Part shown: positions 30,347-40,890 of the stretch, in pieces
Numbering within the stretch: position 1 is the stretch's first letter
How the letters are laid out: each line of letters opens with the position of its first letter
Virus record (IMG/VR): IMGVR_UViG_3300032093_000012
Location: 32,001-96,000 of that record
DNA: 64,000 nt
Direction: 5' to 3' (one strand)
Source of the DNA: a virus
Notes under the pieces: model-generated
The model's input: only the letters and a program-made list of their open reading frames with translations
Databases searched by the model: none
What the model was told of the DNA's origin: nothing
Position numbers and translations under genes: made by a program

Positions 30347-32625
30347 GACTCACAATCCTCTTCATTTACTTCACCAGCTGGCAGCGGCTTTTCTTCATAT
30401 TCACCAGCACCATCATTAGTATTAAAATAATATAGTTGTTTTCCACCATACTTATAAAACATCAGAAGATGACCAATCATCTCAGACATTGGGATCTTTT
30501 CGTCTTCATAAAATCGTGGGTTGTACGAGGTGTTAACGCTGATACCTTGATCGATGAACTTTTGAAGGATGGCGCAGATTTTAAGATAACCCTCTGGTGA
30601 CTTTTGATCCCAGAGCAAGTCATATTTCTTTTTGAGTTTACGAACTTCTGGTACAACTTGCTTCAATACACCATCTTTTGATTGCTTAACTGAAACGAGA
30701 GAGCGCGGTGGCTCGATGCCGTTAGTAGCGTTGCTAATTTGAGCTGAAGTTTCGGATGGCATGAGAGCCATAAGCGTGGAGTTACGGATGCCTGATTTAA
30801 GTACATCCTCACGTAGTGCATCCCATCTGCACGTGTACACCCCCGCAGCAAGTTCGTCAACATCTCGCTTGTAAGTGTCAATCGGGAAGATACCTTGTCC
30901 ATATTTTGTTTCATTTGATTTAGGGCAAGCGCCCTTCTCCTTTGCTAGATCAATTGATGCTTTAATTAGATAATAAGACCATGCTTCAGTATATTCATGA
31001 AGCTTTTGTAAACCTAATGAGTCAATATTTTGATAACTGAGATCGTTGCGAGCGAGCCAGTAAGCAAGATTGATAATTCCAACCCCAAGAGGGCGACGAG
31101 CCATTGTCGAGTTTCTTGCTGCGAGTACTGGATAGTCTTGATAATCAAGTAGCTCATCCAATGCACGCACAGCAAGAGTACAAGGACGTTCAAAATCAGA
31201 AGGATCACGAATCTTTCCCCAATTGATAGCAGCTAATGTACATAGTGAGATTTCTCCATTAGGATCATTAATATCGGTCAGTGGCTTTGTAGGAAGATCG
31301 ATTTCACAACAAAGATTTGATTGTTTAATTGGTGCAACTTCTTTAATAAAAGCACCATGATCATTTGCGTGATCAACATTCATAAGATAGATACGTCCTG
31401 TATCCTTACGTTCCTGCATGAATGCAGAGAACAAATCAACAGCGGGTATTTGTTTCTTTCTGATTTTGGTAGAACGTTCATACTTTTCGTACAATACCCT
31501 GAATTGTTCAGTATTGGTGAAGTATGCATTATATAAGTCAGGGACATCGTTAGGGCTAAACAGAGTAATGTTCCCACCAGAAAGGAGTCGCTCGTACATA
31601 ACTTTATTAAATTGGACACCATAATCTAATCCTCTAATACGATTATCTTCTGTACCCTTGTTATTCTTAAGAACAAGAAGATCTTCTACTTCCAAGTGCC
31701 AGATAGGATAATAAAGTGTTGCCGCACCACCTCGTACACCTCCCTGAGAGCAACTCTTAACCGCCGCTTGAAAAAGCTTGTAGAAGGGGATAACACCAGT
31801 GTGAGTAGCGTCACCACGGCGAATGGGAGAGCCGAGAGCACGAATATTACCAGCACCAATACCAATACCAGCTTTTTGAGAGACGTACTTAACGATTGAA
31901 GAAGATGTGGCATTGATTGAATCCAATGAGTCATCAGTCTCGATAAGTACACACGAGCTAAACTGCTTTTGAGGACTACGGAGACCCGCCATAATAGGAG
32001 TCGGCAACGAAATCTCAAAAGTGCTTGTTGCATCATATAGTTCCTTTACCCATTTAAGTCTTGTTTCTGATGGATAGTTTCTAAATAAGACCATAGCTAT
32101 AAGCATATACGCCATCTGCGGCGTTTCATAGATGTAGCCAGTGGAGCGATTCTTAATTAAATACTTACCCCTGAACTGCTCCATGCCAACATAAGCGATA
32201 GAAAAATCTCGTTCGTGAATAAGTACAGAATTAAGATAATCAAGATCAGCAGGAGAATACCATTCTTTAATATCTTTGTCGTAATATCCAGCATCAATAA
32301 CGCTACGAATATGATCGCGAAGATGAGGGATGTTGTAATCGCCATAGACCTGCTTTCTTAGATGATAATTAATGAGTCTTCCTGCTACATATTGATATGA
32401 TGGAAATTCTTCACTAATTAGATCTGCAGCAGCCTTGATAAGAGTCTCTTGAATGTCGCTTGTTTTAATGCCATTATAAAATTGGATGTGTGATTTGATC
32501 TCTACTTCAGACTCAGACACACCATTTAGACCTTCACATGCCCACGATACAACTTTATGAAACTTGTTGAGATCAAGTGGTTCTTTATTACCATTACGCT
32601 TAGTTACAAGTATTTGCGACATCAT
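30334..32625 (-). CDS. nrdA: Ribonucleotide reductase class Ia alpha subunit
   Basis: ATP cone VTKRNG, QFSSC, SNLCCEI, C-terminal CESC. Confidence 0.98.
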   Translation of the reverse strand: MMSQILVTKRNGNKEPLDLNKFHKVVSWACEGLNGVSESEVEIKSHIQFYNGIKTSDIQETLIKAAADLISEEFPSYQYVAGRLINYHLRKQVYGDYNIPHLRDHIRSVIDAGYYDKDIKEWYSPADLDYLNSVLIHERDFSIAYVGMEQFRGKYLIKNRSTGYIYETPQMAYMLIAMVLFRNYPSETRLKWVKELYDATSTFEISLPTPIMAGLRSPQKQFSSCVLIETDDSLDSINATSSSIVKYVSQKAGIGIGAGNIRALGSPIRRGDATHTGVIPFYKLFQAAVKSCSQGGVRGGAATLYYPIWHLEVEDLLVLKNNKGTEDNRIRGLDYGVQFNKVMYERLLSGGNITLFSPNDVPDLYNAYFTNTEQFRVLYEKYERSTKIRKKQIPAVDLFSAFMQERKDTGRIYLMNVDHANDHGAFIKEVAPIKQSNLCCEIDLPTKPLTDINDPNGEISLCTLAAINWGKIRDPSDFERPCTLAVRALDELLDYQDYPVLAARNSTMARRPLGVGIINLAYWLARNDLSYQNIDSLGLQKLHEYTEAWSYYLIKASIDLAKEKGACPKSNETKYGQGIFPIDTYKRDVDELAAGVYTCRWDALREDVLKSGIRNSTLMALMPSETSAQISNATNGIEPPRSLVSVKQSKDGVLKQVVPEVRKLKKKYDLLWDQKSPEGYLKICAILQKFIDQGISVNTSYNPRFYEDEKIPMSEMIGHLLMFYKYGGKQLYYFNTNDGAGEYEEKPLPAGEVNEEDCESCKI

Positions 32626-32998: not shown

Positions 32999-33063
32999 TA
33001 TAAATACATTGTAGGTCACGGACTGCCATCCCACCTACTCTATATCTATTAAGGAGATACAGC
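32999..33063 (+). promoter_or_regulatory. Late promoter plus structured leader of the NUMOD3-like gene
   Basis: TATAAATA 32999-33006; GTAGGT/ACCTAC stem; TATCT/AGATA stem overlapping the AGGAG SD. Confidence 0.6.
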
Positions 33064-33531
33064 ATGAAAGTAAAAGATTCAATTGGTAAAGCTCTCGGTT
33101 TGTCTGAATGTATTGTCGATTTTGACATGTCAGAATATATATCGGAACCAATACCTAGTTTTTTCAAAGGATGCGCGCATACTGAAGAAACTAAAAAAGC
33201 TATTTCTGAAGCTTTCAAAGGGATTCCTATAGGTCCATTTTCTGAAGAGCATAAAAATAACATTTCTAAAGCCGCCAAAGGTCGAAAAGTTTGGAACAAA
33301 GGTCTTGATAAGTATGATCCTAGAGTTTTGAAAAATTCCATATCACGCTCTATGGTAAAATATAGTGAAGAAACTAAAAAAGCATTCAGAAAACCAAAAT
33401 CTGAAAAAGGAAAAATTAATATGAGTATTGGGCAAAAAGGTAAGCAATATCCTAAAATTCCATGTGAAATTTGTGGTTTAAAGTATTCTTCAAATGCTCT
33501 TCATTCTCATATGAAAACACACAAGGATTAA
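33064..33531 (+). CDS. NUMOD3-repeat DNA-binding protein with C-terminal C2H2-like finger
   Basis: HTEETKKAISEA.KG, SEEHK.NIS.A.KG, WNKG, CEIC...H...H. Confidence 0.72.
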   Translation: MKVKDSIGKALGLSECIVDFDMSEYISEPIPSFFKGCAHTEETKKAISEAFKGIPIGPFSEEHKNNISKAAKGRKVWNKGLDKYDPRVLKNSISRSMVKYSEETKKAFRKPKSEKGKINMSIGQKGKQYPKIPCEICGLKYSSNALHSHMKTHKD

Positions 33532-33534
33532 AAA

Positions 33535-33888
33535 ATGGGTGATATTGCTCAATTAATCTCAAAGTATGGTTTCCCTATCGTTGCAGCTGCAGGTATGGGT
33601 TATATGATATTCTATGTATGGACATGGGCAACGCAGGAAGTTAAACCTGTGTTATCAGAAGCTAATAAAGTTTTGATTGCTTTGATTGATCGTATTCGCA
33701 TGCTTGATAATGACCTTATTCGCTTGAATCAGAAAGTTAATATAGTCTTACAACTTCGTAAGATGGACCATGATGAACTAACAAAGCAAGCTCATGAGTT
33801 TATTGTTGAGGAACAAATCGGGTCCAAATCTATACCACAAAAAGAGCCCGAAAGTGATCCAAACACAAAACCCACAAAAGTAAAGTAA
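33535..33888 (+). CDS. Small membrane/coiled-coil protein, paralog B
   Basis: GFPIVAA.GMGYMIF, LIDRIRMLDNDLIR. Confidence 0.75.
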   Translation: MGDIAQLISKYGFPIVAAAGMGYMIFYVWTWATQEVKPVLSEANKVLIALIDRIRMLDNDLIRLNQKVNIVLQLRKMDHDELTKQAHEFIVEEQIGSKSIPQKEPESDPNTKPTKVK

Positions 33889-33889
33889 A

Positions 33890-35953
33890 TTACTTAGAAG
33901 TTGCACGATAAACACCATCCCAATCAGAGGGTAGAGGATTTTTCTTAAATTCCTCTACTCTTTCCATCATCATATCATAATACTCAGTCATTTCTCCGTT
34001 AAACGCAGATCTAAGAGTCTTATAATAATTTTCCAATGAAACCCAGTTCTGCTCTCTATAAAATTTAACAAAGTCAGCATGTGTTTTTGAATAAGCTCTA
34101 TTGATTCCAGTCTTTGGTACAATAGTGTATATATTGACACCCTGTGATTTGCCTTTAACTGCTAAACAATCAAGTTCTAAGCATAGATATTCATCTTTTA
34201 CTAGTTCATATGTTCTCTGACCAATTACAAGTTTAACATGATATGGTTTTGATTGACCCTCTAATCTTGAAGCAAGGTTTACTGAGTCACCAAGGCATGT
34301 ATAATCAAAACGCTGACTACTGCCCATGTTACCAACAACAACGGAGCCAGTATTAATACCGAGCCCCATGCCGAAAGGTGGTACGCCTTCAACAGAGATT
34401 TCGTCGTTGAATCTGGCCAAATCATCTAACATCTCCAGTGCTGTCTTAACAGCGTGTTTGGCATGATCTGCATCATCGAGTGGTGCATTCCAAAATGCCA
34501 TCTGTGCATCGCCAATATATTTGTCTAGTGTTCCATTATTCTCAAGTATCTTAGCAGTCATGGCCGTCATATAACGGTTCATGATTTTAGTTAAACCCTG
34601 AACGTCGCTTCCGTAATGCTCACTAATAGTAGTAAAGCCACGAACATCAGTAAACATGATTGATAATTCTCGAGTATCTCCACCAAGTTGTAGTAACTCC
34701 GGGTTCTTTTGAAGCTTCTCTACCAGAGCTGGAGATAGATAAGTTCCAAACTGTTTCTTGATTTGTTGTTTTAGTCTAAACTCTCTTGCAAAATTATTGA
34801 ATACAAGATGACCAAAAGTCATCGTAGAAGCAAAAAGTAAATAACTTGTATCCCATAACTGTGAATGCTCTTTAAACATATAGACAGAAAAAGCAACACA
34901 AGAAGATACGATCACTATATAAACAGGAACGGTCCACTTAACAGATGTTCTCGGCACTAGAAAAAGTAGCGATAATAATACTGATATCAGTATTAGTTTT
35001 TCTATTAAGTTACTATATCCTGGACGCGATATCGAAGAACCGTCAATGATAGTTTGCAGAGCACTTGCCTGTACATCATGCGCCCACTTCTCACCTACTG
35101 GTGTAGCTATTATACCACCGACACCCTCAATTGAAATGCCTAATATCACTATCTTTCCATCGACACGCTTATCGATCTCGGTAGCTTCTATTCTTTCGAA
35201 CTTTGTGTTCCATGTCGTCCAGATTCTTCCTCTTTCATCAGTCTGTATCGGCGCGAATGCAGGTACACGGACGAATTCTGGTCCAATCTCACTTGTTTTA
35301 ATTTGATAGCTAGGATCTCCAGCAGCCACTCGAATCGTTTCCAAAGGAATAGAAGGATAAAGACTCCCAGCAATATTGACAAGTAGAGGGATACGACGAA
35401 CCACACCGTCCACCTCACCAATGGTGGCGACCACTCCAACACCTCCGGCCACTTCGGCATGCTCACGTAAAGGACGTAGGCCGCCCCTCCAACGAAAGAC
35501 ATACTCAGTAGGGTTAACAGGCCCGATAGCAGCAAACCCACGACGTACAGCGTCTGGCGGTATATCTTGAGTAGTAGGTGTCTGAGCGATGACGACACCA
35601 TCCAGAGATTTTGTAAGTTCATTGTCGCCTCCAGCTCTATCTTTTTCTGAGAAAAGTATAGGCATAACTATAAGTGCTGCGCCGTTCTCTTTTAATTTAT
35701 TAACAGTCTTAGCTATATCTCTTCTATCAAACGGCCACTGGCCAAATTGTTTTACTGACTTCTCACCAAAATCAACTATTACTAATTCTTCTGATTTTTT
35801 CTCTTCGATAGAATTTATTAGATAATCAAAAGTCTTTAGTTGAAGTACCTGTACTGGACTAGGGTTGTACACATATACGACCAATAGCATTATCGCTGAG
35901 ATAACAACTGCCCAAACGCTGGTTAAAAGCTTTCCTAATATTTCCATGTTCAA
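33890..35953 (-). CDS. CHASE2-domain class III adenylate cyclase
   Basis: GQWPF.R, DGVVRR (CHASE2), 3 TM helices, FTDVRGFT, DKYIGDA.MAFW.AP, DYT.LGD.VNLASRLE, VKGK. Confidence 0.95.
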   Translation of the reverse strand: MNMEILGKLLTSVWAVVISAIMLLVVYVYNPSPVQVLQLKTFDYLINSIEEKKSEELVIVDFGEKSVKQFGQWPFDRRDIAKTVNKLKENGAALIVMPILFSEKDRAGGDNELTKSLDGVVIAQTPTTQDIPPDAVRRGFAAIGPVNPTEYVFRWRGGLRPLREHAEVAGGVGVVATIGEVDGVVRRIPLLVNIAGSLYPSIPLETIRVAAGDPSYQIKTSEIGPEFVRVPAFAPIQTDERGRIWTTWNTKFERIEATEIDKRVDGKIVILGISIEGVGGIIATPVGEKWAHDVQASALQTIIDGSSISRPGYSNLIEKLILISVLLSLLFLVPRTSVKWTVPVYIVIVSSCVAFSVYMFKEHSQLWDTSYLLFASTMTFGHLVFNNFAREFRLKQQIKKQFGTYLSPALVEKLQKNPELLQLGGDTRELSIMFTDVRGFTTISEHYGSDVQGLTKIMNRYMTAMTAKILENNGTLDKYIGDAQMAFWNAPLDDADHAKHAVKTALEMLDDLARFNDEISVEGVPPFGMGLGINTGSVVVGNMGSSQRFDYTCLGDSVNLASRLEGQSKPYHVKLVIGQRTYELVKDEYLCLELDCLAVKGKSQGVNIYTIVPKTGINRAYSKTHADFVKFYREQNWVSLENYYKTLRSAFNGEMTEYYDMMMERVEEFKKNPLPSDWDGVYRATSK

Positions 35954-36231
35954 TATTGATTGATAATATAAGGATTAGTTGCGCAATTACTAGTACAATG
36001 AATATCAAGCGATATAGACTTATTGGTATTGCCGGATTGTGTGATATTGATGGGGACGTTATCACCAGTACTATTAATAATAGCAGTGTGAAAGCCAATA
36101 CCAGATTGATTAATAATGACATTATTAAAGTTCCCTGTTAAGTTTACTGTAGCAGTATTCATAACAGGTGATGGTAGTGTCTGTGAAAATGCAGTTGATG
36201 TCATGAATAGAAGTGCTAATAGTGTTTTCAT
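35950..36231 (-). CDS. Small secreted curlin-like protein
   Basis: Signal peptide, N...I.Q.G repeats, CxxxC near C-terminus. Confidence 0.6.
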   Translation of the reverse strand: MKTLLALLFMTSTAFSQTLPSPVMNTATVNLTGNFNNVIINQSGIGFHTAIINSTGDNVPINITQSGNTNKSISLDIHCTSNCATNPYIINQY

Positions 36232-37361
36232 TCTGATTGCTTTATGGTAATTATGGTTGTTCCAGTATTGTTTATTATTTGTTTAACCTCTAAACCCTCT
36301 TGAGTTATCTTAAGAGTACCAGCTTTATATTGAGACATAGTTAGCTCGGCGTAGCTATTTACTGTTTCTCTATACAATGTTAGCATTTCATTTTCAACAA
36401 AAAACTTAAGACCACTGGTTGGATTAAATTTAGGCAGTAGAGAATTAAACTCACTGAGTTCATCTGATAATAATTGTGACGAAGCCACATCTAAGAAGTT
36501 ATAAAGATAATCAGCACTAAGAAAATCTCTGTTTAGCTTATTAAACTCTTTTAAAAAATCTTTATCTAATTCAGTATATTTTAAATAATCTTTCTTAAGA
36601 AAGTCTTCATCTAAGAAATTATATCCTCTTCTTTCAATAGTTCTTTCAGTTTGTTCTACAATTTTAGGTGGTGTTACAATGATTAAATTATTAACTTGAT
36701 TCAAATCTAAGTTTAATATTGCAGAAGCTGTCGGCCTTGAAAAGCTAGTATCAACAGTCGTAGTTTCAAATGGTTTTGTTAGTAATACTGTACCCATGAC
36801 AGATGATACTAAGATCTTACCGATAACACAATCTCTTTGTATATCTTTCCAACCTTCGGGACAAGATGGTAATAGTATTATTTGTGATCTTCCAAGTTCA
36901 TCGACCGTACTTGAAAAGTCTGTACCTCTGACACCTATAGTAGCAGTTGGTGTAGTAACTACAACTTGTTGTGGATCATTCTTAGCTATTTGACCTGATG
37001 CATATTTAATAGTACCAAGCGCCATCTTGATACCAAGTTTTCCTGTTTTCTTATCACCATCATAAACGAAGTTATCAATGACTAATTTACTATGTTCAGT
37101 TATCTGGACTCTAGTATCATCTTTAAAGGTTATTCCAGCTTTTGAATTTGCTGTTGTGATGACATCTTGCATCTCGACACCAAATTGCAATGCACTAGGA
37201 ATAACCTCAGATTGCCTCTTTATCTCTGTAGGTCCAGTTTGTTCTGTTACTTGTCCAACTGAAGCATTAGTTGTGGTTGGACTTAATAGTAACAGCGTTG
37301 CTAGAACCGGTAATAGTTGTAACGATCTTTGAATCAATTGCTCCACCCTGTCTAAAGTCAA
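36228..37361 (-). CDS. Secreted FecR-domain protein
   Basis: D.I.T, F.D.T.V...E.S.L.ID...YD, TPTATIGVRGTDF. Confidence 0.88.
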   Translation of the reverse strand: MTLDRVEQLIQRSLQLLPVLATLLLLSPTTTNASVGQVTEQTGPTEIKRQSEVIPSALQFGVEMQDVITTANSKAGITFKDDTRVQITEHSKLVIDNFVYDGDKKTGKLGIKMALGTIKYASGQIAKNDPQQVVVTTPTATIGVRGTDFSSTVDELGRSQIILLPSCPEGWKDIQRDCVIGKILVSSVMGTVLLTKPFETTTVDTSFSRPTASAILNLDLNQVNNLIIVTPPKIVEQTERTIERRGYNFLDEDFLKKDYLKYTELDKDFLKEFNKLNRDFLSADYLYNFLDVASSQLLSDELSEFNSLLPKFNPTSGLKFFVENEMLTLYRETVNSYAELTMSQYKAGTLKITQEGLEVKQIINNTGTTIITIKQSE

Positions 37362-37950
37362 CGGTGTTTAATGCACCATTTATTGATAAATCTACTTCAT
37401 GACCAGTAGTTCCTGCAGTTCCTGCCTGAACAACATCAACTATATTACCACTACCACCAACGATATCAACAAGATTCTTTGTACCAGCTACAGCAGATGA
37501 AGTATTTGTCATATTAACTTGGTTATTATCTGATTGTATGTTTACTGTAGTATTAGTTAGAGAGTTTGTACTCTGTGTTAGTGAGTTACCATCACCAGTT
37601 ACAGAATTAGTGATTGTTGATGGTCCACAAGAACCTCCATTAGCACCACACTCTAAATTTAGTATATTAGAACTGCCAGTAATGACAGATGATATAGTCG
37701 CACCATCTCCCATAACCGCCATATTCGTTACGTTATTATTGCCAATCTGCTCAATATTTACAGTGTTATTATCACCATTAAATGTTGATTTAACACTAGG
37801 TGTTCCAATTGCGTTTCCAGAACCAGACTGTGTGATGTTTATAGTAGAACCATCGCCGATCTGATCCATATAAATTAAGTTTGCCGCATTTACATAACCT
37901 GACATGACCAAGAATGATATAAACATCATCATTCTTGTGATTGTTTTCAT
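37267..37950 (-). CDS. Curlin-like (CsgA/CsgB-like) beta-solenoid protein
   Basis: Signal peptide; N/G/T/S-rich; repeated Q.G..N and N...I.Q units; follows csgG. Confidence 0.75.
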   Translation of the reverse strand: MKTITRMMMFISFLVMSGYVNAANLIYMDQIGDGSTINITQSGSGNAIGTPSVKSTFNGDNNTVNIEQIGNNNVTNMAVMGDGATISSVITGSSNILNLECGANGGSCGPSTITNSVTGDGNSLTQSTNSLTNTTVNIQSDNNQVNMTNTSSAVAGTKNLVDIVGGSGNIVDVVQAGTAGTTGHEVDLSINGALNTVDFRQGGAIDSKIVTTITGSSNAVTIKSNHN

Positions 37951-38774
37951 TTTTTGTTTTCCTTTTTAGTTGTCTCTTTATACTTCCATAACTTCTTTTG
38001 AGAACCTTGTTTTATCATGTCAACTACTGCTGCTTCTATAGCTATCCTTACAGCATAAGTTGTAGGTTCATTTATAGAAGTACCTGCTTCTAACTCTACT
38101 GATCTTGTTCCAGCATCAACAAACTTAAATACATTAGCACTTACACCAGTGCTATAGATAGTCTTTGTCACACCGCTAGAAATTAATATCTCACCTGTGC
38201 TAATTGATATTAATCTCAACATAATAGTTACTTCGTCTTTACGATATTCTTGCTGTGCTCCAAGGCCAAGATAACGTGCACCAATACCACCAGTTGCAAT
38301 ATTACTATCATAACCAACTATACCACCCTCTATCATTATACCAGCTACTATAAGTGGTGTTAAGGGTTTGGCTTGTTCTTTTTCATATACTTCACGTTGA
38401 CTTCTAATAAGTTGTCTTTCTTTAACAAGATTATCAAGACTTACTCTCTCGATAGGTTTAAAGAACTTACCTTTTGAAGCATCCTGTAAAGCTTTTATTA
38501 GTATGACTTCTCCACCTTGTGTGACAGCAGAACTTAAACTAGCATAATTGCTGGTTGGTTTTCTTTGTCCACTCATATCAGAGAATTTATACACTGCCAC
38601 TGGTATAGGGTCGCCATTTACGGCTGGTATATTTATGAGCTCATTGAATCTTTTAGCAGTAATTATTTCTGCTTTATCTACTTGATTCTCTAAATCTTTA
38701 CTAGATGTTATCTTACTGCCTGTACATCCAGCCAAAGCCAAAGCACAGACCATTAAAAATGCATATCTTACCAT
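37947..38774 (-). CDS. csgG: Curli secretion pore lipoprotein
   Basis: LAGC lipobox, AVY.F.D.SGQRK, S.AVTQG, ER..L.NL.KERQ.IR, EGGIVGYDSN, GARYLG.G. Confidence 0.95.
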   Translation of the reverse strand: MVRYAFLMVCALALAGCTGSKITSSKDLENQVDKAEIITAKRFNELINIPAVNGDPIPVAVYKFSDMSGQRKPTSNYASLSSAVTQGGEVILIKALQDASKGKFFKPIERVSLDNLVKERQLIRSQREVYEKEQAKPLTPLIVAGIMIEGGIVGYDSNIATGGIGARYLGLGAQQEYRKDEVTIMLRLISISTGEILISSGVTKTIYSTGVSANVFKFVDAGTRSVELEAGTSINEPTTYAVRIAIEAAVVDMIKQGSQKKLWKYKETTKKENKK

Positions 38775-39205
38775 GCTAAGCTCCCGTATGGTACTACCAC
38801 TTGCGTAACACTACCACCGGGATCTGTAATTCTTAATGTTATAGTACTACCGTCAGACGTCCACTGTAAGTTATTTCCACCGATATCAAAAGATCCTGAA
38901 GATGCTCCGCCTTCTTTAAATAATTCAGCAGCGATATTTTGTGATATCGTTGCATAGATTCTACTCTCTAGATTATTCAAGAATTTAGCTAAGTTTGTGT
39001 TCTTAGCATCAGCTGCAGCTTTAGCTGCATCCGTCTTCTTGTCTTCTATAATCTTCTGCTTCCTTGTTTGTTCAAGGTTATCAATAGTTAAGACATGAGA
39101 CGAATAGCCGACGCCAGAAAAAGATGGGTTTTTAAACCCAAAGCTCACTTCACTTGCATAAGAAGCAGAAGAAAATAAGCACACTAGTAATGCTATCTTC
39201 TTCAT
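38768..39205 (-). CDS. csgF: Curli assembly component
   Basis: Signal peptide then F.FKNPSF.G; overlaps csgG start. Confidence 0.85.
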   Translation of the reverse strand: MKKIALLVCLFSSASYASEVSFGFKNPSFSGVGYSSHVLTIDNLEQTRKQKIIEDKKTDAAKAAADAKNTNLAKFLNNLESRIYATISQNIAAELFKEGGASSGSFDIGGNNLQWTSDGSTITLRITDPGGSVTQVVVPYGSLAW

Positions 39206-39225
39206 GTTTTACTCCTGTTACTGGT

Positions 39226-40890
39226 TTATTTATAATCCCTCATCTCTTTCATATGTTGCTGTAGCTCAGGATCACCTATTAATGCTGGTTCCATAATAGG
39301 TTCAACTGAAGATTTTACGTACTTATGGAAAAGCATCTTAGCAGTCTCTTCATCTTTTGCCTTTGGAACACACATACCACAACCACAAAGGTCATGTGGG
39401 CATGTTATGTAGGGGATCTCCATGTTACCATAAAGATGATCTTTTAATTTTGATATGATCTTTGAGAACTCACTAACTTTACCGATAGGTTCCTCAACAC
39501 TATTAAGGCTTGTCCTACATGTCTGATGATGGAAGACAATATCCTTCTCTTGCTCAATATGCAAGAAGAACCAATTAATCATACACTTCCAGCCCTTAAA
39601 GTTTGTGTTCTTAGCAAACTTGATTTCATCCCACTGGTCTTTTTCAGAATGAACTGTTTGACAAGACAAGTCTCTGCCACCACAACACATCCTACCAATA
39701 GAACGGCCGACTACTTTACCTTCTTCAAACTTAGATTTCTTTAGAGTATCCACGGATTTAACAATGTTGAGTGGATCTTCAAAGTTCTTGCGTGACTCTC
39801 TTATCTTATCAAGTTTTTCTTGAAAATCAAAGTTGGCTGCTTCGATACTTTGCTTTGCAGGTTTATTAACATTATCGATAAGAGTATATGTTTTTTTTGA
39901 ATGTTCACCCTGTTCAATCAATACTGCAGGAACTTCTTCTTTCTTTTTACCTTTCATTGAAATATCAGCAACTTGCTGTTGTTTAATTTCAATCTTTTTA
40001 ATTTGCTTTTGTACTTCAACCGGTTCTTTAGACAAAAATTCTTCTACAGATTCTACTTCGACTTCTTTAGAACCAATTAGTCTATCAAAGAAACCATTCA
40101 CTGAATCTTCTACACTTAGACCACTAACTTTGATATTAGAGAAAGCATGTTCAGTAAGTTCTAAGTTTTTCTTATTCCAGTACATTGTAATGTATGCAGC
40201 CTGATCATGTGTATAGGCATGCACTTTACTTCTTGTAATTACTTTCTGCTTCTTAAGATCTACTTCATCTTTCTTTTGTTCTTCTAGTCTTTCACCAATA
40301 ATTCTAGGAATAAAATTAATCTTACGTGGTGTAAGAACATTCTCCATAAGATCAACACACTCATTAAAGTATTGATCATTGGCATGCATCATGACATTTA
40401 CTTTAAAACGTTGACCAATATCCTGTAGATGAAGGATATTCTTTACAACTTTTTCTTTCAATGTTGGGTGTGCTTCAGTATGGTAGCTAACAGTAATCAT
40501 GTTGAAGAGTTTAAGGATCTTCTCACTAGTATCTGTTGGCCAAGTAGCATTAGTCGTCATGCTAAGACGATACTTCTTAGGATAAGTGTCTCTAATCCAT
40601 TCTACAAACTTAAAGAAATTTGGATTAACAGTCGGCTCACCACCAGTGAAGCTAATAGTACATGCCATATCAATCTTATGAAATGATTTATAGATTGAAT
40701 AGTATTCGTCAATATGCTTCATGGTCTTCTTAAGTTCTTCCATCTCTGCATGAGCTGACCATGAATTATGCATGTATAGTGTACAATAGGTACAGTCGTA
40801 GTTGCATCTACGACCGAGATCCCATACAATCATCATATTATAGCCAGACTTTTCATTATAGTCAATGGCTGTCAAGAGTTGTTCTTGCAT
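39226..40890 (-). CDS. Radical SAM protein with central charged insertion and Cys-rich C-terminus
   Basis: CNYDCTYC, FTGGEP, TTN; CCGG, CPHDLCGCGMC. Confidence 0.88.
   Translation of the reverse strand: MQEQLLTAIDYNEKSGYNMMIVWDLGRRCNYDCTYCTLYMHNSWSAHAEMEELKKTMKHIDEYYSIYKSFHKIDMACTISFTGGEPTVNPNFFKFVEWIRDTYPKKYRLSMTTNATWPTDTSEKILKLFNMITVSYHTEAHPTLKEKVVKNILHLQDIGQRFKVNVMMHANDQYFNECVDLMENVLTPRKINFIPRIIGERLEEQKKDEVDLKKQKVITRSKVHAYTHDQAAYITMYWNKKNLELTEHAFSNIKVSGLSVEDSVNGFFDRLIGSKEVEVESVEEFLSKEPVEVQKQIKKIEIKQQQVADISMKGKKKEEVPAVLIEQGEHSKKTYTLIDNVNKPAKQSIEAANFDFQEKLDKIRESRKNFEDPLNIVKSVDTLKKSKFEEGKVVGRSIGRMCCGGRDLSCQTVHSEKDQWDEIKFAKNTNFKGWKCMINWFFLHIEQEKDIVFHHQTCRTSLNSVEEPIGKVSEFSKIISKLKDHLYGNMEIPYITCPHDLCGCGMCVPKAKDEETAKMLFHKYVKSSVEPIMEPALIGDPELQQHMKEMRDYK
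39227..39234 (-). promoter_or_regulatory. T4-type late promoter for the csgF-to-cyclase operon
   Basis: Exact TATAAATA 22 nt before csgF ATG, AGGAG SD. Confidence 0.75.

Follow-up and report, generated by a model that had tools for sequence, protein, structure and literature searches.

We analysed a 64,000-nucleotide (nt) stretch of viral DNA, positions 32,001 to 96,000 of the IMG/VR record IMGVR_UViG_3300032093_000012 (hereafter the window, numbered from its first letter), which is part of a 167-kb virus record estimated to be 99% complete. The source is an uncultured T4-like aquatic phage whose nearest relatives include contigs binned with freshwater metagenome-assembled genomes (MAGs). Positions 33890-39205 are filled, on the minus strand, by six open reading frames (ORFs) in which a curli-type secretion unit is combined with a FecR-fold protein and a CHASE2 adenylate cyclase. 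An earlier note on this DNA had described six overlapping genes (csgF, csgG, a curlin-like gene, FecR, a small curlin-like gene and a CHASE2 cyclase) behind an exact late promoter. All six ORFs were found where they had been placed, and the promoter core matched exactly. In the direction of transcription the features are as follows, with expectation values (E) and, where given, the ratio of nonsynonymous to synonymous substitution rates (dN/dS).

39227-39234, minus strand: T4-type late promoter core TATAAATA, exact match, 21 nt before the csgF ATG
38768-39205, minus strand: csgF, 145 amino acids, signal peptide (Pfam CsgF, E 8.2e-18, above the cut-off; phrog_35372; dN/dS 0.07)
37947-38774, minus strand: csgG, 275 amino acids, predicted outer-membrane lipoprotein pore (Pfam CsgG, E 1.7e-51; LAGC lipobox)
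37267-37950, minus strand: CurA, secreted curlin-like beta-solenoid, 227 amino acids, signal peptide, periodic Q-x-G...N (assigned by profile and model)
36228-37361, minus strand: secreted FecR-fold protein, 377 amino acids from the longest start, signal peptide (Pfam FecR, E 5.9e-12)
35950-36231, minus strand: CurB, mini curlin-like protein, 93 amino acids, signal peptide, two Q-S-G motifs (no Pfam match above threshold; dN/dS 0.14)
33890-35953, minus strand: CHASE2 class III adenylate cyclase, 687 amino acids (Pfam CHASE2, E 1.8e-36, residues 21-324; Guanylate_cyc, E 1e-20)

Adjoining genes of this cassette share overlaps of 4-7 nt, the curlin/FecR pair excepted, where the overlap between CurA and FecR is 95 nt if the longest TTG start of FecR is taken; two further in-frame starts are available (GTG at 37346, TTG at 37337), and the signal peptide is kept with all three. 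The six genes are translationally coupled. An AGGAG lies between the promoter octamer and the csgF ATG, and the octamer itself falls within the last codons and stop region of the radical-SAM gene upstream. As read from the sequence, the cassette has a T4-type late core at a suitable distance upstream of its first gene. The excess of the octamer TATAAATA across the window is only modest, since 14 copies were counted against 7.1 expected and 14 was reached in 1 of 100 shuffles. Among related loci, 13 of 46 carry the exact octamer within 50 nt of csgF. Compared with an 88%-identical relative (L008), all six genes gave dN/dS values of 0.06-0.14; judged from this comparison they are under purifying selection, with function kept. 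The signal peptides of CsgF, FecR and both curlin-like proteins are of the Sec type.

Products of the cassette

The cyclase is laid out as a first transmembrane segment, a periplasmic CHASE2 domain, about three further transmembrane segments and a cytoplasmic cyclase domain, with hydrophobic segments at residues 10-28, 316-334 and 342-360 plus a weaker third segment in the hydropathy profile. Its cyclase domain aligned with Pseudomonas aeruginosa CyaB (3r5g, E 1e-32). D436, K478, D482, T552, N559, R563 and K602 match CyaB residues and are invariant in 15 viral homologues; they comprise the metal-binding Asp residues (D436/D482), the substrate Lys/Thr pair (K478/T552), the transition-state residues (N559/R563) and a phosphate-binding Lys. 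On this alignment all catalytic residues of the predicted adenylate cyclase are intact, in agreement with the metal Asp, Lys/Thr and N..SR features ascribed to it before. It is the sole cyclase of the phage record.

An AlphaFold2 model of the FecR-fold protein consists of a beta-sandwich (residues 36-203) that contains a conserved Cys pair, followed by a helical linker modelled with low confidence and by a small beta domain at the C-terminus. Foldseek matched the model to the periplasmic domains of the anti-sigma protein BDI_1681 (4m0h) and of PupR (CCSSD, 6ovk), at E about 1e-3. Only a cleavable signal peptide precedes the FecR domain. The protein has neither the anti-sigma N-terminus nor a membrane anchor and is therefore a secreted FecR-fold protein and not a FecR anti-sigma regulator. 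It shares the periplasmic FecR-fold domain with the FecR/PupR anti-sigma factors, but its gene is flanked by curlin genes and the cyclase gene instead of being paired with an extracytoplasmic function sigma factor and a TonB-dependent transducer.

The mature N-terminus of the phage CsgF, FGFKNPSFSG, is presumably similar to the Escherichia coli CsgF peptide that plugs the CsgG barrel; no match between PDB CsgF and the phage CsgF was obtained by phmmer. The phage CsgG aligned over its full length with E. coli CsgG (3x2r, E 1.3e-47), with residues in the constriction loop unlike the E. coli ones. CsgE (PF10627), noted earlier as missing from the window, was not found in the whole 167-kb record at E <= 0.1, in a search whose control detected E. 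coli CsgE. The phage block thus shares with the E. coli curli system (CsgBAC/CsgDEFG; 3x2r, 6l7a, 8enq) the CsgG lipoprotein pore, CsgF and, probably, beta-solenoid subunits with repeats of the Q-x-G-x-x-N type. It differs in having no CsgE or CsgC, in curlin repeats that score under the Pfam threshold, in the CsgG constriction residues and in the addition of a FecR-fold protein and a cyclase.

The curlin-like identity proposed earlier for the third and fifth products stood in part. Neither protein reached the gathering score of Pfam Curlin_rpt (20.7), with 17.8 bits for CurA and 14.3 bits for CurB. For CurA, however, other comparisons pointed towards curlins: the Q/G/N periodicity (Q-x-G...N) is invariant across 14 homologues; a CurA-family profile searched against all PDB sequences returned the CsgA proteins of E. 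coli (8enq) and Pontibacter (8c50) as its top two matches, at E about 0.01; and an AlphaFold2 model folded into a beta-solenoid of about 20 strands (pLDDT 83.5, pTM 0.80). Foldseek found no match of this model in the PDB at E <= 0.001. By VIA-align it superposed on Pontibacter CsgA 8c50 with Z 16.9 at 18% identity, a score to be read beside the matches also obtained to generic beta-helices; beta-solenoids of phage fibres and tailspikes were among the structural matches, at Z about 12. Together, the two best PDB hits of the profile and the confident beta-solenoid model support CurA as a probable divergent curlin.

CurB, in which N, G, S or T make up 48% of residues, is a variable, dispensable slot of the cassette. 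In relatives the second curlin ranges from 0 to 640 amino acids (about 90-130 in this clade), with N, G, S and T always at 37-47%. At least 14 loci lack the fifth gene, and there the end of the FecR gene runs 18-45 nt into the start of the cyclase gene. In one viral subclade (L055:3313-5232 and L055:5645-7921; L062, L065, L070) the second curlin is about 640 amino acids long and is separated from the cyclase by an inserted Amidoligase_2 protein of 670-835 amino acids; in L055 the second curlin carries an F5/8 type C (discoidin) glycan-binding domain. A different insertion, a Metallophos phosphoesterase gene between FecR and the second curlin, was seen at L059:5305-6099. It was considered as a cyclic AMP (cAMP) phosphodiesterase and dropped, its best PDB relatives being LpxH-type hydrolases and not Icc/Rv0805.

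FecR and the cyclase are the most conserved linkage of a viral cassette

Close homologues of the cyclase occur on more than 596 IMG/VR contigs. We fetched 80 of these loci and counted gene linkage in the 34 that had a full 8-kb upstream flank. FecR lay upstream of the cyclase in 34/34 loci, and CsgF, CsgG, CurA and FecR were all present in order in 31; in the remaining three, long inserts displace csgF out of range. The gene order that the earlier note had put forward for examination is therefore conserved, with csgFG and the cyclase co-occurring, and FecR plus cyclase is the tightest and most conserved linkage of the cassette.

Megablast of the block against cultured phages gave no match, and relatives among them were found at the protein level only. 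A protein search detected the cyclase in Methylophilales phage Melnitz (44% identity) and Pelagibacter phage HTVC008M (41%), whose annotations show the identical six-gene order (records MZ577097 and KC465899). The block belongs to the viral type VIII secretion (curli)/FecR/adenylate cyclase cassette already published for aquatic T4-like and podo-type phages. Zaragoza-Solas et al. (2020) reported that pelagimyophages have a curli operon, for which they suggested a role in 'sibling capture' (PMC7029224), and Buchholz et al. (2022) proposed a lysis-timing pore (PMC9004378). Wittmers et al. (2022) reported the order csgF-csgG-csgA/B-FecR-csgA/B-AC (AC, adenylate cyclase) in podo- and myo-pelagiphages, preceded by one or two small 'HK' genes, together with metatranscriptomic evidence of expression; they regarded FecR and AC as putative regulators and suggested that the block came from Alphaproteobacteria (PMC9599517).

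The window shares with the published region the order csgF, csgG, curlin, FecR, (curlin), CHASE2 cyclase, the lack of csgE, the association with a family of small membrane proteins and the T4-like phage background. It differs from the cultured cassette phages in sequence, their proteins being only 32-48% identical to those of the window, with the nearest relatives (88-95%) among uncultured IMG/VR contigs; in the length of the second curlin, 93 amino acids here against 338-441; and in its flanks, where the small membrane gene lies downstream on the opposite strand beside a NUMOD3 endonuclease-like ORF and a radical-SAM gene lies upstream.

Low-GC phage contigs bearing the cassette also sit in MAGs (L004, L005, L006, L153, L154, L158-L161, L233, L236-L239, L241-L243) labelled Bacteroidetes, Flavobacteriaceae, Pelagibacter, Rhodobacteraceae, Luteolibacter, Pirellulales, Polynucleobacter and Legionellales. 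These placements look like binning artefacts and could mislead inference of host or origin.

FecR/CHASE2 pairs in bacteria and chromosomal copies of the cassette

A FecR-profile scan of one genome per species recovered 80 loci, of which nine, being low-GC phage-like contigs or Caulobacteraceae copies of the cassette, were set aside. A CHASE2 cyclase lay within 10 kb of FecR in 28 of the 71 bacterial loci, and CsgG or CsgF in 0/71. The closest cellular CHASE2 cyclases were 28-39% identical, with no curli genes found beside them. In Desulfovibrionaceae (L091/L131) the order is AC, GAF-HD, FecR. Published clusters show the same association: a LysM-FecR gene adjoins a CHASE2 kinase in Burkholderia BiofilmReg (PMC5192318), CHASE2-AC, phosphodiesterase, FecR and TPR genes are grouped in Campylobacterota (PMC9239204), and cyaD1 adjoins the FecR-domain gene SMc02177 in Sinorhizobium meliloti (PMC5498481). 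These clusters resemble the phage block in that a secreted FecR-domain protein accompanies a CHASE2 membrane sensor; a phosphodiesterase is frequently part of them. They differ in having no curli genes, in an output that varies between histidine kinase and cyclase, and in FecR proteins that often carry LysM or long extra regions. Because the pair recurs in bacteria without curli, the phage block looks as if a curli secretion unit had been added to a FecR/CHASE2 pair that existed before it.

An envelope partner for such cyclases, as invoked in the earlier note, has a precedent in S. meliloti, where the outer-membrane barrel NsrA feeds the CHASE2 cyclases CyaD1, CyaD2 and CyaK and thereby cAMP-Clr signalling (PMC13001267). 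As in the phage block, an outer-membrane beta-barrel is found upstream of CHASE2 class III cyclases, with a FecR-domain gene beside cyaD1; the partner there is NsrA and not CsgG, and the receptor, Clr, is known. In an alphaproteobacterial MAG, the gene of the closest cellular CHASE2 cyclase has directly upstream of it one for a 2,492-amino-acid secreted cadherin-like protein (L088:2423-9898) and, downstream, one for a TPR-GT41 glycosyltransferase. This locus may be another pairing of a large surface protein with a CHASE2 cyclase.

The whole block also occurs in bacterial DNA. Two freshwater Caulobacteraceae MAG contigs, L157 (CANGCO010000005, 5824-13133) and L156 (CANGEH010000001), reproduce the gene order of the cassette, with csgF, csgG, two curlin genes, FecR and the CHASE2 cyclase. 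The contigs are 32 and 83 kb long with a GC content of 54-57%, and the block is flanked by methylmalonyl-CoA mutase, acyl-CoA dehydrogenase, amidohydrolase and TetR genes; the small membrane gene is absent. Their FecR proteins are 37-38% identical to the phage FecR. In a FastTree phylogeny of 113 cyclases, the viral and the two Caulobacteraceae sequences grouped together (support 99), separate from 29 bacterial cyclases, and the Caulobacteraceae cyclases nested within the viral clade next to a phage-like contig (support 100). These sequence relationships suggest a possible transfer from phage to cell. Just upstream of the Caulobacteraceae block lies a Metallophos gene whose best PDB relatives are GpdQ and the cyclic nucleotide monophosphate (cNMP) phosphodiesterase Rv0805/Icc; the position of the block by an Icc-like phosphoesterase would suit a cyclic-nucleotide circuit able to operate outside lytic infection as well. 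Apart from these copies, chromosomal csgG was recovered at a single locus, a curli locus of Erythrobacter, which has large curlins and no FecR or cyclase within 10 kb.

Flanking genes

Two genes adjoin the cassette, one on either side.

33535-33888, plus strand: small single-pass membrane protein P0001, 117 amino acids, one transmembrane helix and a coiled coil (phrog_18771, E 7e-31), downstream of the cassette and convergent with it
39226-40890, minus strand: radical-SAM protein, 554 amino acids, directly upstream of csgF

The small membrane family (phrog_18771) accompanies the cassette in 31 of the 34 loci. One to three copies directly precede csgF in HTVC008M, Melnitz and many further loci; the downstream, opposite-strand placement of the window is shared by some relatives. 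The family contains two paralogue types, INKYGFPIVAAGGMGY... and LVAEVGFPIAAAIAAGY..., often in tandem (L057:12824-13102, L014:12168-12452 and others). No Pfam family was assigned to any of 20 members, no kinase domain was found and there was no PDB match. The ESM Atlas gave phage-only clusters, the nearest named clusters were YvrJ/Holin_BhlA at a low score, and PHROG gave a match to phrog_4898 'holin' (E 1.4e-4) over 21 residues. A holin was therefore considered and kept as a weak lead only, given the 21-residue match, the low-score ESM neighbours and the lack of Pfam or PDB matches. The protein is probably the 'HK' of Wittmers et al. (PMC9599517).

Directly upstream of the relocated small membrane gene is a 155-amino-acid ORF (33064-33531, plus strand) with NUMOD3 and C2H2 zinc-finger motifs, like the DNA-binding part of a homing endonuclease, which is itself preceded by TATAAATA at 32999-33006 (plus strand). 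This ORF may mark the rearrangement that moved the small membrane gene to the far side of the cassette. The radical-SAM gene stands outside the conserved cassette, since only the closest relatives, L008 and L041, share it.

Proposed function and alternative explanations

We propose, with about even confidence, that the block forms one envelope-to-cytoplasm unit that couples secretion or surface status with cAMP synthesis. The six genes would be cotranscribed from the T4-type late promoter, whose sequence is present and whose late timing we presume. Five of the products, judging from their Sec signals or lipobox, would leave the cytoplasm. By homology CsgG and CsgF would build an outer-membrane pore, for which CurA, joined by the variable second curlin where present, would be the secreted or displayed substrate. 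FecR and the CHASE2 cyclase, whose linkage and bacterial recurrence are observed, would act as a periplasm-facing sensor pair and presumably interact physically, and the cyclase, with its catalytic residues intact, would make cAMP in the cytoplasm. The evidence strengthens the case that FecR and the CHASE2 cyclase function as a pair to which the curli unit is coupled, and argues against both the virion-fibre and the pure lysis-pore readings considered below.

A more specific form of this proposal is an outside-in sensor, in which the solenoid at CsgG/CsgF would be the antenna, FecR the relay and CHASE2 the transducer. Surface events would then act through cAMP on late infection or the tuning of lysis, and the system would have passed between phages and at least one bacterial lineage. 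Its inputs may be the adsorption of a second phage, cell contact or, in the discoidin-bearing variants, a glycan ligand. We consider this full scheme unlikely as it stands.

Several points weigh against a sensing unit of either form. The chain from solenoid through FecR and CHASE2 to cAMP, and the purposes suggested for it in the earlier note (sensing of contact or superinfection, lysis inhibition), are plausible inference. Anti-sigma FecR-fold domains bind the STN signalling domain of TonB-dependent transducers; the Pfam domains in the phage CsgF and CsgG are CsgF and CsgG only. A C-terminal segment of FecR (...ITQEG...TIITIKQ) was considered as a curlin rung that docks on the fibre and was dropped: profile-profile comparison of FecR with CurA gave nothing at the C-terminus, its best alignment lying in the signal-peptide region (E 0.11, probability 0.5%), and Pfam Curlin_rpt had no match to the segment. 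On the output side, the phage record encodes no cNMP-binding protein or cAMP receptor. A cNMP-binding domain was absent from two of three Pelagibacter-labelled assemblies, all three of them incomplete, and in the third was found only in ORFs of about 1,000 amino acids. The S. meliloti gene SMc02177 is a cAMP-Clr target and is dispensable for signal perception (PMC5498481), and FecR could therefore be an output instead of a relay. Podophage versions of the cassette are often without AC and the second curlin (PMC9599517). As a discovery, finally, the cassette is already known, and the window adds another, somewhat rearranged, copy.

A different emphasis has been proposed in print (PMC7029224, PMC9599517): the cassette would primarily make curli-type amyloid fibres at the surface of infected cells, which would let these aggregate ('sibling capture') or shield them against superinfection, with FecR and the cyclase regulating the fibre. 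CsgF and CsgG are invariably found, together with a curlin-type solenoid modelled with confidence, and a second curlin that can be large, with a discoidin domain in L055, would suit an adhesive surface fibre. However, all six genes would share one late transcript, and cAMP-based transcriptional control of the same operon therefore makes little sense in a lytic phage. This phage, moreover, is without a cNMP-binding protein, and no regulator of the CsgD or CRP type was seen in it, CsgD itself not having been searched for. Buchholz et al. observed no clumping of Melnitz-infected cells (PMC9004378), and the FecR-AC pair, the most tightly linked of the cassette, occurs in bacteria without curli genes. 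We regard a fibre-first function as possible but doubtful. The late promoter is in keeping with a second published idea (PMC9004378), in which CsgGF and its partners would work as a pore with a gate or in the manner of a pinholin, with lysis timed by cAMP or by the small membrane proteins, and the conserved single-pass membrane family that accompanies the cassette, with its weak holin-like leads, adds to it. Yet CsgG is an outer-membrane pore, and opening it could not collapse the potential of the inner membrane; the holin leads fall far short of significance, with no Pfam match in 20 members; and the whole block stands without small membrane genes among metabolic genes in two Caulobacteraceae chromosomes, where a lysis role is unlikely. 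A lysis-timing device thus seems to us quite improbable.

That CsgE is found nowhere in the phage record, and that the name FecR is tied to iron-citrate signalling, might point to uptake instead. A CsgE-less CsgG pore would admit nutrients or cofactors such as iron complexes, with FecR sensing them and the cyclase reporting, as discussed by Wittmers et al. (2022) among the alternatives (PMC9599517). This is very unlikely in our view: the phage FecR is a secreted FecR fold only, without the anti-sigma N-terminus and anchor; the curlin genes are retained throughout and evolve under purifying selection, although an open channel would have no use for them; and CsgF narrows the pore and does not open it. 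Least probable of all would be curlin-like proteins that serve as tail or head fibres of the virion, with the other products as their chaperones. Beta-solenoids are common in phage fibres and tailspikes, and several match the CurA model at Z about 12, but T4-type virions assemble in the cytoplasm, and the curlins, CsgF and FecR carry cleavable Sec-type signal peptides and CsgG a lipobox. The Sec signals on the curlin-like proteins therefore argue against virion fibres, as does a copy of the block in a bacterial chromosome whose surroundings contain no phage genes.

Implications

The coupling of a curli unit to a FecR/CHASE2 pair, as proposed here, concerns a cassette that is widespread in aquatic phages. 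Wittmers et al. detected viral curli proteins at every one of the 65 GOV2.0 ocean stations and estimated their share of the assembled viral proteins at about 0.1% (PMC9599517), and SAR11 and OM43 hosts have no curli genes according to published papers. The cassette would give such curli-less hosts a new envelope structure and a second-messenger enzyme, and several guesses at its function have been published. If FecR/CHASE2 does read a surface structure made by the phage, it would be the first phage-encoded trans-envelope cAMP sensor, and would offer a handle on the ligand problem of CHASE2 domains generally.

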